From a virus (Duplodnaviria; Heunggongvirae; Uroviricota; Caudoviricetes), in IMG/VR virus record IMGVR_UViG_2563366931_000002: 14,469 nt of DNA, one strand, 5' to 3'. Of the stretch, positions 4,622-14,469 are shown one piece after another. Every line of letters begins with the position of its first letter. The stretch's first letter is position 1. The notes under the pieces were generated by a model. The model worked only from the letters and a program-made list of their open reading frames with translations. It was not told the origin of the DNA and searched no databases. The translations under genes and the position numbers were made by a program.

Positions 4622-7600
4622 ATGGGTAAAGGCAGCAGTAAGGGGCATACTCCGCGCGAAGCGAAGGACAACCTGAAGTCCACGCAGTTGCTGAGTGTGA
4701 TCGATGCCATCAGCGAAGGGCCGGTTGAAGGTCCGGTGGATGGATTAAAAAGCGTGCTGCTGAACAGTACGCCAGTGCTGGACAGTGAGGGGAATACCAA
4801 TATCTCCGGCGTCACGGTGGTGTTCCGGGCCGGTGAGCAGGAGCAGACACCGCCGGAGGGATTTGAATCCTCCGGCTCCGAGACGGTGCTGGGTACGGAA
4901 GTGAAATACGACACGCCGATCACCCGGACCATCACGTCGGCAAACATTGACCGACTGCGTTTTACCTTCGGCGTGCAGGCACTGGTGGAAACCACCTCAA
5001 AGGGGGACAGGAATCCGTCGGAAGTCCGCCTGCTGGTTCAGATCCAGCGTAATGGTGGCTGGGTGACGGAAAAAGACATCACCATTAAGGGCAAAACCAC
5101 CTCGCAGTATCTGGCCTCGGTGGTGGTGGGTAACCTGCCGCCGCGCCCGTTCAATATCCGGATGCGCAGGATGACGCCGGACAGCACCACAGACCAGCTG
5201 CAGAACAAAACGCTCTGGTCGTCATACACCGAAATCATCGATGTGAAACAGGGCTACCCGAACACGGCACTGGTCGGCGTGCAGGTGGATTCGGAGCAGT
5301 TCGGCAGCCAGCAGGTGAGCCGTAATTATCATCTGCGCGGGCGCATTCTGCAGGTGCCGTCGAACTATAACCCGCAGACGCGGCAATACAGCGGTATCTG
5401 GGACGGAACGTTTAAACCGGCATACAGCAACAACATGGCCTGGTGTCTGTGGGATATGCTGACCCATCCGCGCTACGGCATGGGGAAACGTCTTGGTGCG
5501 GCGGATGTGGATAAATGGGCGCTGTATGTCATCGGCCAGTACTGCGACCAGTCAGTGCCGGACGGCTTTGGCGGCACGGAGCCGCGCATCACCTGTAATG
5601 CGTACCTGACCACACAGCGCAAGGCGTGGGATGTGCTCAGTGATTTCTGCTCGGCGATGCGCTGTATGCCGGTATGGAACGGGCAGACGCTGACGTTCGT
5701 GCAGGACCGACCATCAGATAAGGTGTGGACCTATAACCGCAGTAATGTGGTGATGCCGGATGATGGCGCGCCGTTCCGCTACAGCTTCAGCGCCCTGAAG
5801 GACCGCCATAATGCCGTTGAGGTGAACTGGATTGACCCGAATAACGGCTGGGAGACGGCGACAGAGCTTGTGGAGGACACGCAGGCCATTGCCCGTTACG
5901 GTCGTAACGTCACGAAGATGGATGCCTTTGGCTGTACCAGCCGGGGGCAGGCACATCGCGCCGGGCTGTGGCTGATTAAAACAGAACTGCTGGAAACGCA
6001 GACCGTGGACTTCAGCGTGGGCGCAGAAGGGCTTCGCCATGTGCCGGGCGATGTCATTGAAATCTGTGATGATGACTATGCCGGTATCAGCATCGGCGGG
6101 CGCGTGCTGGCGGTAAACAGCCAGACCCGGACGCTGACGCTCGACCGTGAAATCACGCTGCCATCCTCCGGTACCACGCTGATAAGCCTGGTTGACGGAA
6201 GTGGCAATCCGGTCAGCGTGGAGGTTCAGTCCGTCACCGACGGCGTGAAGGTGAAAGTGAGCCGTGTTCCTGACGGCGTTGCTGAATACAGCGTGTGGGG
6301 GCTGAAGCTGCCGACGCTGCGCCAGCGCCTGTTCCGCTGCGTGAGTATCCGTGAGAACGACGACGGCACGTATGCCATCACCGCCGTGCAGCATGTACCG
6401 GAAAAAGAAGCCATCGTGGATAACGGGGCGCACTTTGACGGCGACCAGAGCGGCACGGTGAATGGTGTCACGCCGCCAGCGGTGCAGCACCTGACTGCCG
6501 AAGTCACCGCAGACAGCGGGGAATATCAGGTGCTGGCGCGCTGGGACACGCCGAAGGTGGTGAAGGGTGTGAGCTTTATGCTTCGCCTGACCGTAACAGC
6601 GGATGACGGCAGTGAGCGGCTGGTCAGCACGGCCCGGACGATGGAAACCACTTACCGCTTCACACAACTGGCGCTGGGGAACTACAGGCTGACAGTCCGG
6701 GCAGTAAATGCGTGGGGGCAGCAGGGCGATCCGGCGTCGGTATCGTTCCGGATTGCCGCACCGGCAGCGCCGTCGCGGATTGAGCTGACGCCGGGCTATT
6801 TTCAGATAACCGCCACGCCGCATCTTGCGGTTTATGATCCGACGGTACAGTTTGAGTTCTGGTTCTCGGAAAAGCGGATTGCGGATATCAGGCAGGTTGA
6901 AACCACAGCACGCTATCTTGGCACGGCGCTGTACTGGATAGCCGCCAGTATCAATATCAAACCGGGCCATGATTATTACTTTTATATCCGCAGTGTGAAC
7001 ACCGTTGGCAAATCGGCATTCGTGGAGGCTGTCGGTCAGCCGAGTGATGATGCATCAGGCTATCTGGATTTTTTCAAAGGAGAAATCGGGAAAACACATC
7101 TGGCCCAGGAGCTGTGGACGCAGATTGATAACGGTCAGCTTGCGCCTGACCTGGCTGAAATCAGGACGTCCATTACGGATGTCAGCAATGAAATCACACA
7201 GACCGTCAATAAGAAACTGGAAGACCAGAGTGCAGCGATCCAGCAGATACAGAAAGTTCAGGTTGATACAAATAATAACCTGAACAGCATGTGGGCTGTG
7301 AAGCTGCAGCAGATGCAGGACGGACGCCTTTATATTGCGGGTATCGGTGCCGGTATTGAGAACACCCCTGACGGCATGCAGAGTCAGGTGCTGCTGGCGG
7401 CAGACAGGATTGCGATGATTAATCCTGCGAATGGCAACACAAAACCGATGTTTGTTGGTCAGGGCGATCAGATATTCATGAACGACGTGTTCCTGAAACG
7501 CCTGACGGCCCCCACCATTACCAGCGGTGGAAATCCACCGGCATTTTCCCTGACACCGGACGGAAAGCTGACCGCTAAAAATGCGGATATCAGTGGCAGT

Positions 7601-8119
7601 GTGAATGCGAACGCCGGGACGCTCAACAATGTCACGGTAAATGAAAACTGTACGATTAAGGGCATGCTGGAGGCGACTCAGGTCAGAGGTGACTTCGTTA
7701 AAGCTGTATCCAAATCATTCCCGAAACAGGCTGGTACGTGGGGTAATACGGAAACACCAAACGGGACGGTTACAGTCACCATCAGCGATGATCATAACTT
7801 TGACCGTCAAATCATTATTCCGCCCATTATCTTTAACGGAATAGCGTATAGCGATCCGGGAAGTGGTAATAACCCGGGAGGTACAAGATACACGGGTTAT
7901 GGTTTTGAAGTTCGCAAAAACGGTGTATTAATCGCATCCAGAGAAACTAAAGGGGCCATTCCCGGTAGCTACAGTGCGGTTATTGATATGCCGAGTGGCA
8001 GGGGAAGCGTCACTCTGGAGTTTAAGATTTTCCAGAAAGGCAATCAGGGCGCAGGTAACATCACAGACTGTACGGTGATTGTGACCAAAAAAGCTGCTTC
8101 CGGTATCAGTATCCGTTGA
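4622..8119 (+). CDS. J: Host specificity protein J (central tail fibre / tail tip), lambda gpJ-like, 1165 aa
   Basis: Very long ORF downstream of I, with a GAGG Shine-Dalgarno 5 bp upstream. The N-terminus ([29 protein letters not shown]...) and most of the body match lambda gpJ as I recall it. It is about 30 codons longer than lambda J, and the 3' end drifts to lower GC. Confidence 0.92.
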
Positions 8120-8140
8120 AATATTTATAACCCCAATACG

Positions 8141-8164
8141 GGCGCCAGAAATGGCGCCTTTTTT
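8141..8164 (+). terminator. Rho-independent terminator downstream of J (GGCGCC-AGAAAT-GGCGCC stem-loop plus TTTTTT)
   Basis: Perfect 6-bp GC stem with a 6-nt loop at 8141..8158, immediately followed by a T6 run, 22 bp after the J stop and just before the fibre gene. Confidence 0.6.
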
Positions 8165-8179
8165 ATTTGTGGAGTGAGT

Positions 8180-10549
8180 ATGGCAGTACAGATTTCAGGT
8201 GTGCTGAAAGATGGTGCGGGAAAACCAATACAGAACTGCACTATTCAACTGAAGGCAAAGCGTAACAGCACCACGGTACTGGTGAACACGGTGGCCTCTG
8301 AAAATCCGGATGAAGCCGGGCGTTACAGCATGGATGTTGAGTATGGCCAGTACAGCGTTATCCTGCTTGTTGAAGGTTTTCCGCCTTCACATGCCGGAAC
8401 CATTACCGTCTATGAAGGTTCCAGACCAGGTACGCTGAATGATTTTCTCGGTGCCATGACGGAAGATGATGTCATGCCGGAAGCATTGCGTCGTTTTGAG
8501 GAAATGGTGGAAGAAGCGGCACGCAACGCCGAAGCCGCCTCTCAGAGCGCAGCGGCGGCAAAGAAATCCGAAACTGCAGCGGCATCATCGAAGAACGCGG
8601 CGAAAACCTCAGAAACGAATGCAGCTAATAGTGCACAGGCGGCAGCGACCTCAAAGACTGCATCGGCAAACTCCGCGACAGCAGCCAAAAAATCAGAAAC
8701 CAACGCGAAAAACAGCGAGACAGCCGCAAAGACGAGCGAAACCAACGCAAAGTCCAGCCAGACGGCAGCGAAAACCAGCGAAACGAATGCCAAAGCCAGT
8801 GAAACTGCGGCAAAAAACAGCCAGGTTGCAGCAGCCCAAAGCGAGAGCGCGGCAGCCGGTTCTGCGACTTCAGCAGCTGGATCAGCAACTGCTGCGGCTA
8901 ACAGCCAGAAAGCTGCGAAGACGAGTGAAACTAACGCAAAGTCCAGCCAGACGGCAGCGAAGACCAGCGAAACGAATGCCAAAGCCAGCGAAACTGCGGC
9001 GAAAAACAGCCAGGATGCAGCAGCCCAAAGCGAGAGTGCCGCAGCTGGTTCTGCAAGTGCGGCGGCTTCTTCTGCCACTGCATCAGCCAACAGTCAAAAA
9101 GCAGCAAAAACCAGTGAAACCAACACAAAGGCGAGCGAGACTGCGGCGACTAACTCGGCGAAAGCATCCGCTGCAAGCCAGATGGCTGCAAAAGCAAGTG
9201 AAGACGCAGCCAGGGAGTACGCAAGCCAGGCAGCTGAGCCGTATAAACAAGTTTTGCAGCCGTTGCCTGATGTGTGGATACCGTTTAATGACTCGATGGA
9301 TATGATTACAGGATTTGGCCCGGGATATAAAAAAATAACAGTGCGCGATGATGTGGTCACTATACCATCCGACAAAATTGTCCCGTTTTCCCGCGCGAGT
9401 TCCGCGACCTATATCAATAAGTCCGGCGCTCTTACCATTGCAGAAATTAATGAGCCACGTTTTGAAAAAGAAGGGCTGTTAATTGAAGGGCAGAGAACAA
9501 ATTACTTCACAAACTCAAACGCTCCGGAATTGTGGAATAAAAATCCAGGCCTGAAGATAAGCGAGACAAAAACCGATTCCAGGGGTTTTAAATATGCAAC
9601 GTTTACCCCAGAAAAATATTTAGATAGTTCTGGCTCATATGGAATTATATCAGGGGCAGCAGCAAATAAGATAGCGGTAGTCAAAAATGATGCAGTTACA
9701 ATATCCTTTAGAGCAAAAGGGGATAATGTAAGATTTGCGGCTAGATTTGATAAAGGGGATTCGCCAGTTGCTGTAGCTGCCATTTTTATTGATAGCGCCA
9801 CACTAGATACATTCACGTCTGGAGCAGATGCGTCTAATATTGCTGTGAAAAATGTTGTTCGTGACGGTGAGTGGGTTGCTGTAGAGGCTGTTTATAAAGT
9901 AACAGACGACTCTACATATATTAACGGCGCCATTCTGATGTCAAACAAACTGGGTGCTAATTTTGATAAGACTAGTTTTATGGATGTAACCACCCCTCAA
10001 ATAGAGCTAGGTTCTTGCTTATCATCATTTATTGTCACACCAGGTGTTCCTGCGACAAGGGCGAGTGATATGGTTATTTTTTCAACCAGAAATAACATAA
10101 GTTCTGTCCCTTTAAGCTGTCTTGTTGAAATACATAAAAATTGGGACTCTACGCCAAATCAGGCCCCACGAATTTTAACCACTATTGGCGTGGCGACTAA
10201 TGATGAACAACTGGTATTGGCTTTCAGGACGCCTACAAGTCCGGATGTAGAACCTTTACCTTATGTTCAGTTTGGAGTGAGATCTGCATATCTTAGTCCA
10301 TCTGTGAAGGCCGGGCGCAAAATGATTGCTGGTTTTGTCTGTAATAGCTCGACTGAATTTCGTTGCTGTTGTAATGGTTACCTGTCACCTGTTCAGACTT
10401 CGTCATGGAAGAATACCGGAGCTGCACATGAAATACGTATTGGGGGAACTTCTGCTGGAGGAGAACGTCACTTGTTTGGTCACGTTCGTAACCTGAGAAT
10501 ATGGCATAAAGAATTAACTGATGCGCAAATGGGGGAGAGTATTAAATGA
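8180..10549 (+). CDS. stf: Side tail fibre protein (Stf-like), mosaic: conserved lambda-Stf-like N-terminal domain, Ala/Ser/Thr-rich repeat shaft, low-GC C-terminal domain (possibly ConA/LamG-like lectin fold). The ORF track starts at GTG 8174; the ATG at 8180 with GGAG 5 bp upstream is the more likely start.
   Basis: The N-terminus from the ATG (MAVQISGVLKDGAGKPIQNCTIQLKAKRNSTTV...GRYSMDVEYGQYSVIL) closely resembles the lambda Stf N-terminus as I recall it. The central region has KTSETNAK / AAKNSQ repeats. The 3' half falls to roughly 40% GC. The C-terminal motif (HLFGHVRNLRIWHKELTDAQM) resembles the end of LamG-like jellyroll domains; this is inference. Confidence 0.8.
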   Translation: MAVQISGVLKDGAGKPIQNCTIQLKAKRNSTTVLVNTVASENPDEAGRYSMDVEYGQYSVILLVEGFPPSHAGTITVYEGSRPGTLNDFLGAMTEDDVMPEALRRFEEMVEEAARNAEAASQSAAAAKKSETAAASSKNAAKTSETNAANSAQAAATSKTASANSATAAKKSETNAKNSETAAKTSETNAKSSQTAAKTSETNAKASETAAKNSQVAAAQSESAAAGSATSAAGSATAAANSQKAAKTSETNAKSSQTAAKTSETNAKASETAAKNSQDAAAQSESAAAGSASAAASSATASANSQKAAKTSETNTKASETAATNSAKASAASQMAAKASEDAAREYASQAAEPYKQVLQPLPDVWIPFNDSMDMITGFGPGYKKITVRDDVVTIPSDKIVPFSRASSATYINKSGALTIAEINEPRFEKEGLLIEGQRTNYFTNSNAPELWNKNPGLKISETKTDSRGFKYATFTPEKYLDSSGSYGIISGAAANKIAVVKNDAVTISFRAKGDNVRFAARFDKGDSPVAVAAIFIDSATLDTFTSGADASNIAVKNVVRDGEWVAVEAVYKVTDDSTYINGAILMSNKLGANFDKTSFMDVTTPQIELGSCLSSFIVTPGVPATRASDMVIFSTRNNISSVPLSCLVEIHKNWDSTPNQAPRILTTIGVATNDEQLVLAFRTPTSPDVEPLPYVQFGVRSAYLSPSVKAGRKMIAGFVCNSSTEFRCCCNGYLSPVQTSSWKNTGAAHEIRIGGTSAGGERHLFGHVRNLRIWHKELTDAQMGESIK
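8727..8865 (+). repeat. Intragenic direct repeat copy A (139 bp) within the fibre shaft; repeat period 189 bp (63 codons)
   Basis: Aligned by eye to 8916..9054 with about 10 mismatches in 139 bp. It encodes AKTSETNAKSSQTAAKTSETNAKASETAAKNSQ.AAAQSESAAAGSA. Confidence 0.85.
8916..9054 (+). repeat. Intragenic direct repeat copy B (139 bp) within the fibre shaft; more diverged partial copies flank it
   Basis: Near-identical to 8727..8865 at nucleotide level. Flanking sequence (about 8560..8726 and 9055..9180) contains degenerate versions of the same unit. Confidence 0.85.
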
Positions 10550-10827
10550 AAGATTTAACACTCAAATTTGCAGACAGGGCCGACTTTTCGGCCTTTATGG
10601 AGAGCATTGGCTATTATGATGACGAGTTGATGCAGGATGATATTCTTATTGACGTGATAGGTAACGTGTACAAAGAAACCGGAGAACTGACTGAAGATGG
10701 CGAACCGGTATGTGTTAAGGAAGACGGATATTTTGTAAACGTGCGCATCATTAATGATGCAAAAAAATCGTCAATATTCGATGAATACGCGGTTGTTGTT
10801 GAACATCAACTTCGTGGCTGGATGTGA
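10546..10827 (+). CDS. Hypothetical small acidic protein (93 aa), translationally coupled to the fibre gene; function unknown
   Basis: The ATG overlaps the fibre stop (ATGA) and has a GGGGGAG Shine-Dalgarno-like sequence about 8 bp upstream. Low GC like the fibre 3' half. No motif I recognise. Confidence 0.5.
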   Translation: MKDLTLKFADRADFSAFMESIGYYDDELMQDDILIDVIGNVYKETGELTEDGEPVCVKEDGYFVNVRIINDAKKSSIFDEYAVVVEHQLRGWM

Positions 10828-10836
10828 GGGAGACAA

Positions 10837-11541
10837 ATGGCTACATCGACAGTAATTCCGGGAGACATCACCACGCTGAAGGGAGATGTCAGTAAAGCGA
10901 AGGAAGATATTTCCTCAATTAACAGTAAAGTATCAACGCTTCAGACTGATATGACCAGTGCAAAGCAGGATATCAGCTCCAGATACACAAAAACTGAAGT
11001 TGATAATAAGCTGAAAAACAAAGTGGAAGTGAACGATCTGGAAAGTGGTCGTTATGGCGGAGATTTTTATCCACTGACAGGTCGTGAAGCGTTTTATTTA
11101 TGGAATTTGGCCACGACTACAGCGGCGGCAAACCTTTATCTTAATCCTGACCCTGCAATTTCGTCTGTACTGCGGTCAACATCGTCTATCCGCTATAAGC
11201 ATTCAGTAGAGACGATAGATTCAGAGCACGCCGATCTCATTTTCAGGATGCGCCCTGTATGGTACAGGTCACAATGCGAAAATGACAGGCGTGACTGGGG
11301 ATTCTACGGATTGATTGCCGAGGAAGTAGGAGAAATTGCCCCTCAGTTTGTACACTGGCGATCAGCTAACGAAGATGATGCACGGGAAGCTATTTCCAGC
11401 AATGGCCTTGTTGCCGAAGGTGTAATGTACGAACGTCTGGTTGTTCCACTGATTCACCATATCCAGAAACTGACCGAAAGAGTTGATGAACTTGAGTCAG
11501 AATTGAAGTTGTTATCAACTTCCCGAAGCGATATCGGATAA
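10837..11541 (+). CDS. Short tail-fibre-like protein: N-terminal coiled coil plus C-terminal intramolecular-chaperone (peptidase S74-like) domain, 234 aa
   Basis: GAGGGAG Shine-Dalgarno upstream of the ATG. The N-terminal roughly 70 aa have heptad-like Ser/Thr/Lys/Asp periodicity. The C-terminus carries motifs typical of fibre/endosialidase C-terminal chaperone domains: SSIRYKHSVETID (Ser-x4-Lys), MRPVWYR, GLIAEEVGEIAPQFV, GVMYERLVVPLIHHIQKLTERVDELE. Confidence 0.7.
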   Translation: MATSTVIPGDITTLKGDVSKAKEDISSINSKVSTLQTDMTSAKQDISSRYTKTEVDNKLKNKVEVNDLESGRYGGDFYPLTGREAFYLWNLATTTAAANLYLNPDPAISSVLRSTSSIRYKHSVETIDSEHADLIFRMRPVWYRSQCENDRRDWGFYGLIAEEVGEIAPQFVHWRSANEDDAREAISSNGLVAEGVMYERLVVPLIHHIQKLTERVDELESELKLLSTSRSDIG

Positions 11542-11551
11542 AGGAGGAGTA

Positions 11552-11845
11552 ATGGATATAACACCTTTTCTTCATGCGCTTTGTGCTGTGGCTGCGCAGG
11601 TACTGATTGGTCTTTTTACCGGAAACTGGGTTTACGGGGCGATAGCCGGTTGTACGTTCTTCATTGCGCGTGAACACACCCAGGCAGAATATCGCTGGAT
11701 TGAAATGTTCGGGCATGGCAAGCGAATGAATATGCCGTGGTGGGGCGGTTTTGATTCGCGCGCATGGGATGTGGCAAGCCTGATGGATTTTGCTGTGCCG
11801 GTGGTGGCGTGTCTGCTGGTCTGGCTGTTGGTTAATCGTGGGTGA
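11552..11845 (+). CDS. Hypothetical small membrane protein (97 aa, 2-3 predicted transmembrane helices), last gene of the co-directional tail-region cluster
   Basis: Strong AGGAGG Shine-Dalgarno 6 bp upstream of the ATG. Hydrophobic stretches FLHALCAVAAQVLIGLF, VYGAIAGCTFFIA and LMDFAVPVVACLLVWLLV. No family recognised. Confidence 0.55.
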   Translation: MDITPFLHALCAVAAQVLIGLFTGNWVYGAIAGCTFFIAREHTQAEYRWIEMFGHGKRMNMPWWGGFDSRAWDVASLMDFAVPVVACLLVWLLVNRG

Positions 11846-12192: not shown

Positions 12193-13218
<1,026 letters not shown>

Positions 13219-13719: not shown

Positions 13720-14469
13720 ATGGATTATGTTTGCTCCGTAGTTTTCATCTGTCAATCATTTGATTTAATTATAAACAGGAGAGTTATCTCGTTCAAAAAA
13801 AATTCATTGTTTATTGTAAGCGACAAAATTAGAAGGGAGTTACCAGTATGCCCCTCTAAACTAAGAATTGTTGATATAGATAAGAAAACATGTTTATCCT
13901 TTTTTATCGACGTGAATAATGAGCTGCCTGGCAAATTTACTCTTGATAAGAATGGCTATATTGCTGAAGAGGAACCTCCATTATCGCTTGTTTTTTCTCT
14001 GTTTGAAGGGATTAAAATAGCAGACTCACACTCCCTTTGGTTAAAAGAAAGACTATGTATATCCTTACTTGCCATGTTCAAAAAACGCGAAAGTGTAAAT
14101 TCTTTTATACTAACAAATATAAATACATTCACCTGTAAAATTACTGGAATAATCAGTTTTAATATTGAGCGGCAATGGCATTTAAAAGATATTGCGGAAT
14201 TGATTTATACGAGTGAAAGTTTAATAAAAAAAAGATTAAGGGATGAAGGAACGTCATTTACTGAAATATTGAGAGATACTAGGATGAGGTATGCAAAAAA
14301 ACTCATAACTTCAAACTCTTATTCTATCAATGTCGTAGCCCAGAAATGTGGCTATAACAGTACTTCATATTTCATATGTGCATTTAAAGATTATTATGGT
14401 GTCACGCCATCTCATTATTTTGAGAAAATAATCGGCGTCACAGATGGAATAAACAAAACAATTGACTGA
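13720..14469 (+). CDS. appY: AraC/XylS-family transcriptional activator, AppY-like (249 aa), prophage cargo
   Basis: 249-aa ORF with a C-terminal AraC-type helix-turn-helix ([44 protein letters not shown] ... [31 protein letters not shown]). Very AT-rich codon usage. Length, N-terminus ([14 protein letters not shown]...) and prophage-end context match E. coli AppY as I recall it. Confidence 0.7.

Follow-up and report, generated by a model that had tools for sequence, protein, structure and literature searches.

What does a pair of near-identical direct repeats do in the shaft of a phage tail fibre gene: do the repeats still recombine with one another, and thereby alter the length of the fibre, or are they the static remains of an old duplication? 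The gene in question lies in a window (by which we mean the whole stretch of DNA analysed, 14,469 nucleotides of the IMG/VR record IMGVR_UViG_2563366931_000002) that is the tail end of a lambda-like Escherichia coli prophage. It encodes an Stf-like side tail fibre of 789 residues (8180..10549, plus strand), directly after the homologue of lambda J. An initial annotation had pointed to two blocks of 139 bp within the shaft as substrates for unequal recombination or replication slippage, which would change the fibre in whole 63-residue steps and generate fibre-length polymorphism between lysogens. Our results favour a refined form of this proposal. We consider it probable that the blocks belong to two units, A and B, of an Stf-like coiled-coil rod, and that occasional out-of-register exchange between such units alters fibre length by whole units.

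Results

Of the 139 positions of the two blocks (8727-8865 and 8916-9054), exactly 10 differ (8728, 8737, 8743, 8773, 8800, 8812, 8826, 8848, 8851 and 8857); the blocks are spaced by exactly 189 bp and begin at the same codon position of the fibre open reading frame (ORF), which confirms the initial annotation in full. Nine of the ten differences are synonymous and fall in third positions; the remaining one, at 8826, changes Val to Asp. In a self-comparison the offset of 189 gave 129 identities over 139 positions against 86 for the runner-up offset of 210, and a 24-mer common to both blocks occurred twice in the window against an expectation of zero from 200 shuffles, so that the similarity of the blocks is far above chance. 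Tandem Repeats Finder placed 2.3 copies of a 189-bp period at 8711-9149, free of indels and with 84% matches. Nested in it are periods of 21 and 42 bp, which equal one and two heptads, and more degenerate flanking copies are therefore present as well. On this basis the region divides into unit A (8726..8914, plus strand; 63 codons or nine heptads, including the first block), unit B (8915..9103, plus strand; 63 codons, including the second block) and a degenerate partial third unit (9104..9149, plus strand), the identity at offset 189 falling off past position 8940. Within unit A, a core at 8744..8847 (plus strand) has no fixed difference from B across alleles in the comparison of diagnostic sites described below, and this core holds the longest perfect matches between A and B (8744-8772, 29 nt; 8774-8799, 26 nt; 8827-8847, 21 nt).

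Both units are embedded in a shaft of 34 unbroken heptads (residues 115-352; 8516..9229, plus strand), a putative trimeric coiled-coil rod of the pattern A-x-x-S-x-x-A, with Ala at position 1 in 30, Ser at position 4 in 32 and Ala at position 7 in 25 of the 34 heptads. Since the 63-residue unit is exactly nine heptads, gain or loss of a unit preserves heptad phase as well as reading frame.

Orthologous fibres do differ in multiples of 189 bp, as a mobile repeat number would require. We took as shaft length the distance between two anchors, GAMTEDD at the end of the collar and PLPDVW after the shaft, in the best 120 protein homologues. This distance was 270 residues in 102 proteins (two units), 207 in 10 (one unit) and 333 in six (three units), and one protein each measured 200 and 214 residues. 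The three main classes step by exactly 63 residues, and their flanks are identical. One-copy alleles appear as single ungapped matches in the complete genomes MSB1_4I, AVS0655 and CB209, and also in the complete genome of the cultured phage IdasGreatGrand (L128). All other anchor-to-anchor variants are whole heptads too, at -1, -2, -7, -8, -9 and +9: IMG/VR contigs (120 were found via the shared 24-mer) lack 1, 2, 7 or 9 heptads between the anchors, one protein allele lacks 8 in a different register, and the complete genomes add a variant without 4 heptads, the 1-heptad deletion recurring there. None of the in-frame indel classes disrupts heptad phase. The initial expectation of whole 63-residue steps thus holds for the main classes, and for the keeping of the frame, but the true unit of length change is the heptad (21 bp), of which 189 bp is the largest and commonest multiple.

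Comparison of units across alleles bears on the age of the pair. A-type units of different alleles are 2-14 nt apart and B-type units 3-13 nt, against 23-30 nt between A and B; unit A of this gene lies 3-8 nt from the A units of other alleles and 27 nt from its own unit B, which in turn lies 5-10 nt from the B units of other alleles. Nei-Gojobori estimates for A against B gave a synonymous divergence (dS) of 0.40 and a nonsynonymous divergence (dN) of 0.009 in the core, and 0.72 and 0.044, respectively, over the whole unit. By these figures A and B are old paralogues with orthologues in other alleles, under purifying selection as protein. A fresh duplication of the blocks was rejected on the core dS and on the greater closeness of each unit to its orthologues elsewhere than to its neighbour.

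The alleles with one and three units carry the trace of exchange between these old units. From 91 two-copy alleles we obtained 16 diagnostic positions that are at least 90% fixed between A and B, located at unit offsets 2, 17, 122 and 140 onward. Painted with these sites, the single unit of L001 and of IdasGreatGrand reads AAB...B, that is, A-type at the two 5' sites and B-type at the remainder. The middle of the three units in L002 and L003 reads BBA...A, with two B-type 5' sites followed by A-type, while the middle unit switches after the first site in L006 (BA...A) and after the third in L127 (BBBA...A). Most natural exchange points of the one- and three-copy alleles fall in the core at 8744..8847, and at least two exchange intervals are represented. 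These one-copy and middle-unit patterns look like what reciprocal products of out-of-register exchange in the core would be expected to leave, and the chimeric units, with their switch points inside the near-identical block, bear out the suggestion that the repeats act as substrates for unequal recombination.

Some of these events are young. Units 1 and 2 of L002 and of L006, both of A type, show no difference over 171 nt, so that the duplications there are recent; in L003 and L127 the two A units differ at 9 sites. The single units are nested among the B units, the nearest of which is 0-5 nt away against a B-to-B median of 8, and this speaks for their origin by deletion from two-copy alleles rather than for a single copy as the ancestral state. 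Given this nesting and the A-type 5' sites, a single-unit allele is an unlikely ancestor in what is an unrooted comparison without an outgroup. Moreover, at 8 of the 11 core sites the typical state of one unit also segregates in the other (74 distinct two-copy alleles), a shared polymorphism such as units that repeatedly exchange or convert one another would be expected to show.

The shaft is widespread in its host. About 970 of 5426 complete E. coli genomes have it, and E. coli 118UI, with about 50 further complete genomes, carries a gene 100% identical to the whole fibre gene. The two-copy form is also found in two other Escherichia species. In a collection with one genome per species the 24-mer of the repeat was confined to Escherichia, bar one apparently mis-binned contig. 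That contig (L130, JAGZNZ010000051.1) is 2.8 kb long, carries this Escherichia phage fibre gene and was binned in a Collinsella metagenome-assembled genome, probably in error.

The reading of the shaft as a rod rests on its setting in the gene. At the N-terminus a collar domain for tail-tip attachment (8180..8461, plus strand) is assigned from its match to the collar of Ur-lambda, the role being that described in PMC12617516: phmmer matched it at E 1.5e-49 to residues 1-94 of the Ur-lambda tail fiber protein (PDB 9e7m_Ta), a chain that was also the best Foldseek match (83% identity). In the Ur-lambda Stf, the collar that sits on the tail tip comprises residues 1-91; a short linker follows, and then a proximal trimeric coiled coil at residues 102-393 (PMC12617516). 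The gene position and the N-terminal domain homologous to that of Ur-lambda Stf are the grounds on which we infer that the shaft corresponds to the proximal trimeric coiled coil of lambda and has a core of small residues. An AlphaFold2 (AF2) model of the monomer places helix at residues 104-226, 237-309 and 315-357 with low confidence; given a whole-chain predicted TM-score (pTM) of 0.38, we used only its secondary structure and its confident C-terminal part. When the shaft was scanned by itself against Pfam, with E values up to 10 admitted, no family matched, and the unit was accordingly rejected as an instance of the Phage_fiber_2 tail fibre repeat (PF03406), for which no profile match appeared even at that threshold. 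A sequence search of the PDB returned the N-terminal collar and three weak depolymerase matches (E about 6e-4, short helical segments), which are uninformative on the repeat.

Beyond the repeat, the gene ends in beta-rich, lectin-like domains (9491..10549, plus strand; from Pfam, Foldseek and predicted local distance difference test (pLDDT) values) that are presumed to be receptor-binding. The AF2 pLDDT is 75-94 across about residues 440-610, and the 350-residue C-terminal region, modelled with confidence as beta structure, matches PF13385 (Laminin_G_3, E 3.2e-07) as well as neurexin LNS, galectin and CBM domains in Foldseek. In its position after J, its homologous collar, its long rod of predicted helix and its distal receptor-binding part the fibre resembles Ur-lambda Stf (PDB 9E7M/9MGH; PMC12617516). 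It differs in that megablast similarity to lambda-type phages ends at query position 473, within the start of the shaft, and in that its distal part is a tandem lectin-like beta-sandwich, whereas that of lambda Stf is described as gp37-like. No 189-bp A/B units were seen in lambda-type phages at megablast sensitivity, and no family match to a Tfa-type chaperone (Pfam, PHROG) was found among the downstream ORFs, where a 93-residue protein and a 234-residue S74 protein stand instead. The fibre is, by collar and gene position, of the lambdoid Stf type with a different distal module on the same chassis. The stretch at 9269-10005, which spans the post-shaft junction and the first lectin-like domain, has about 76% DNA identity to fibres of T5-like lytic phages (T5_ev219, JLBYU40), so that the distal module is common to temperate lambdoid and T5-like phages.

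The assignment of the fibre start requires a comment. The ORF lister gave 8174-10549 with a GTG start at 8174, a codon that sits within a Shine-Dalgarno-like GGAG (8171-8174), and an ATG follows downstream at 8180. The true start is likely to be this ATG, because the GGAG lies upstream of it and the closest homologues have 789 residues. A Pfam scan identified the N-terminal domain PF08400 in the protein (E 1.8e-67), which also matches the tail protein family phrog_1419. Alternative-frame ORFs run across the repeat at 8466-9305 (plus strand, 279 residues) and 8542-9090 (minus strand, 182 residues); we did not count them as genes, since the Ala-rich GCN codon composition most likely accounts for them.

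Upstream, the window holds the tape measure gene (28-2220; ORF list and Pfam scan), small tail-tip genes and the J homologue (4622-8119, 1165 residues), in which six gpJ-type Pfam families scored above their cut-offs. The gap of 60 bp between J and the fibre gene (8120-8179) lacks a lom gene and contains a strong terminator-like hairpin (8140-8166, GGGCGCC-AGAAAT-GGCGCC followed by a T run). An Ail/Lom gene of 199 residues occupies this place in L001, L002, L004-L006 and phage IdasGreatGrand, and phage HannyBb, whose fibre has two units, is without lom like the window. Downstream of the fibre gene, three small genes fill 10546-11845: the first ORF (93 residues) overlaps the fibre stop codon and belongs to phrog_1361 of unknown function, the second gene (234 residues) ends in an S74 intramolecular chaperone domain, and the third ORF has 97 residues. 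The S74 protein has 346 residues in several relatives and 234 in IdasGreatGrand, which gives two length forms of this second fibre-like protein. Past the tail genes are an IS5-family DDE transposase (12193-13209, minus strand) and an AraC-type regulator (13720-14469, plus strand) that extends beyond the window end; the two may mark the prophage boundary, or an insertion within the prophage. In the three-copy relative L002 a Pin-like resolvase/invertase gene (7460-8050 of that contig, minus strand) lies 3' of the fibre cluster, an arrangement that resembles invertible fibre segments of the e14 and Rac type. No Pin-like resolvase/invertase gene is present in the window.

Discussion

According to our interpretation, each block would be the conserved core of one of two 63-codon units that stand in tandem in the rod of a lambda-type side tail fibre, and the rod, a trimeric alpha-helical coiled coil, would keep the lectin-like receptor-binding domains distant from the tail tip. 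Although A and B make up an old, protein-conserved pair, their cores are near-identical and probably still enter into out-of-register homologous exchange, whether by RecA, by Red or by slippage. The occasional products would be a one-unit allele, in which the unit is an A/B chimera, or a three-unit allele composed of A, a B/A chimera and B. The 21-bp and 42-bp periodicities would likewise give the smaller changes in whole heptads. An alpha helix rises about 0.148 nm per residue, and by this textbook value the 34 heptads would extend for about 35 nm and one unit for about 9 nm.

Several observations weigh against this interpretation, or at least limit its reach. As to frequency, two copies 63 residues apart are present in 112 of the 120 IMG/VR contigs (about 93%), all full-length matches in a spread sample of complete genomes have the two-copy length, and the 50 complete genomes with the identical gene all carry it at 2376 bp. 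Three-copy alleles were absent from the best 40 complete-genome matches, three exact copies of the marker were present in only one IMG/VR contig, and the three-copy alleles that were found, among them those of GCA_016595135 and of the source of IMGVR_UViG_2541047862_000009, all come from draft or metagenome assemblies. (For the complete genomes, the copy classes were taken from spread and best-match samples.) As to structure, an Ala/Ser core is atypical for a coiled coil, and the pLDDT of the shaft was 37-61 in an AF2 run made on the monomer; low confidence is, however, expected when one chain of a trimer is modelled alone. The copy number is stable on short time scales and the locus is not hypervariable. 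No length change within a clonal lineage, such as a contingency locus would show, occurred among the 50 complete genomes with the identical gene. The proposed fibre-length polymorphism between lysogens consequently separates diverged prophages and does not extend to lysogens of one clone.

This stability could be taken to mean that the repeat is a static structural one, an ancient duplication kept for the sake of rod length, with its likeness in DNA imposed by protein constraint and with changes in copy number too rare to matter. Such a reading would agree with a dS of 0.40 in the core and 0.72 over the unit as marks of an old duplication, with the orthology of A and B across alleles (23-30 nt between types as against 2-14 nt within), with the dominance of the two-copy form, including in the two other Escherichia species, and with the lack of variation among the 50 identical lysogens. 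Yet it leaves aside the three-copy alleles with 171 nt of full identity between their two A units, the two or more exchange intervals, the nesting of one-copy alleles in B diversity and the polymorphisms common to the A and B columns, all of which indicate that exchange between units continues. We therefore regard a purely static repeat as unlikely. The variant alleles might also be thought to stem from repeat collapse or mis-traversal in short-read assemblies, the more so since three-copy alleles are limited to draft or metagenome assemblies, with none in the best 40 complete-genome matches, and since the 171-nt identical units of L002 and L006 could in principle mislead an assembler. But complete genomes and the genome of a cultured phage carry one-copy alleles, and the six separate three-copy protein clusters come from different projects. 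The two A units of L003 and L127, furthermore, differ at 9 sites, which a graph loop cannot yield. A and B themselves differ at 27 sites and their longest common run in the window is 29 nt; typical final assembler k-mers are longer than this. An assembly artefact is accordingly very unlikely overall, with a weaker exclusion for the three-copy class.

The remaining alternative concerns emphasis, and is compatible with exchange between units. It holds that the shaft DNA serves mainly as homology for swaps of receptor-binding modules among lambdoid phages, length change being secondary. Modules do seem to be exchanged commonly at the shaft: of 5426 E. coli genomes, 4845 have a match to the 5' part of the gene but only 71 match at least 80% of it, the ends of homology recur at query positions about 356, 473, 585, 630, 894, 1143-1163 and 1320, 19 IMG/VR contigs (the 257-residue class) join the same shaft to another C-terminal junction, and the post-shaft region is 76% alike in T5-like phages. 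However, mosaic junctions lie outside the 189-bp units too, there is no sign that module exchange requires the tandem arrangement itself, and purifying selection acts strongly on the units at the protein level. A role as recombination linker is possible as the main function of the shaft, and we hold it only tentatively. The account we prefer remains that of A/B units which lengthen or shorten the rod by occasional out-of-register exchange.

Length change through repeats in a fibre gene is ordinary behaviour, and the present case adds a new example and no new mechanism, since variation of this sort is well known from the tandem repeats of rod-shaped surface proteins. Streptococcal M proteins vary in size through recombination between intragenic repeat blocks; like the present fibre they are heptad-based coiled-coil surface fibres whose tandem in-frame blocks lengthen or shorten by homologous exchange. 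M protein variants are, however, frequent within a strain and tied to immune escape, whereas here there is no within-clone variation and no selective agent was identified. In adenovirus the pseudo-repeats of the fibre shaft set fibre length, and their number, which varies among related viruses, determines the distance from virion to knob. That shaft is nonetheless a triple beta-spiral and no alpha-helical heptad array; its repeats measure about 15 residues and are not near-identical in DNA. Closer to hand, lactococcal and Streptococcus thermophilus phages carry collagen-like Gly-X-Y tracts in their tail fibre or host-specificity genes. These too are rod-forming repeats in phage fibre genes and hot spots for in-frame deletion, duplication and module exchange, although they build a collagen triple helix from much shorter units. 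We did not find this polymorphism described in the literature on repeats, heptads or length variation of side tail fibres, in a search that was incomplete and is weak evidence of novelty.

It could also be hypothesized that rod length is itself selected and quantised by the heptad. Stabilising selection would then restore or retain the two-unit length, about 35 nm, in accordance with the depth of the host's O-antigen or capsule, which the lectin-like tip must reach, and the rare one- and three-unit alleles would be adaptations to thinner and thicker layers. This idea draws on the coexistence of mosaic A/B units across alleles with two units in over 90% of the fibres. We put it forward as speculation, and think it rather improbable that all of it holds.

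In conclusion, the presented data provide a natural allele series of a lambda-type side fibre, with 25, 34 or 43 heptads on otherwise similar fibres, which includes cultured phages with one and two units. The series suggests positions at which fibre length could be engineered, or receptor-binding modules swapped, safely and in phase. Any effect of rod length on adsorption would be open to direct experiment with these alleles, which could serve to test the reach of the fibre against adsorption on E. coli with different surface layers.

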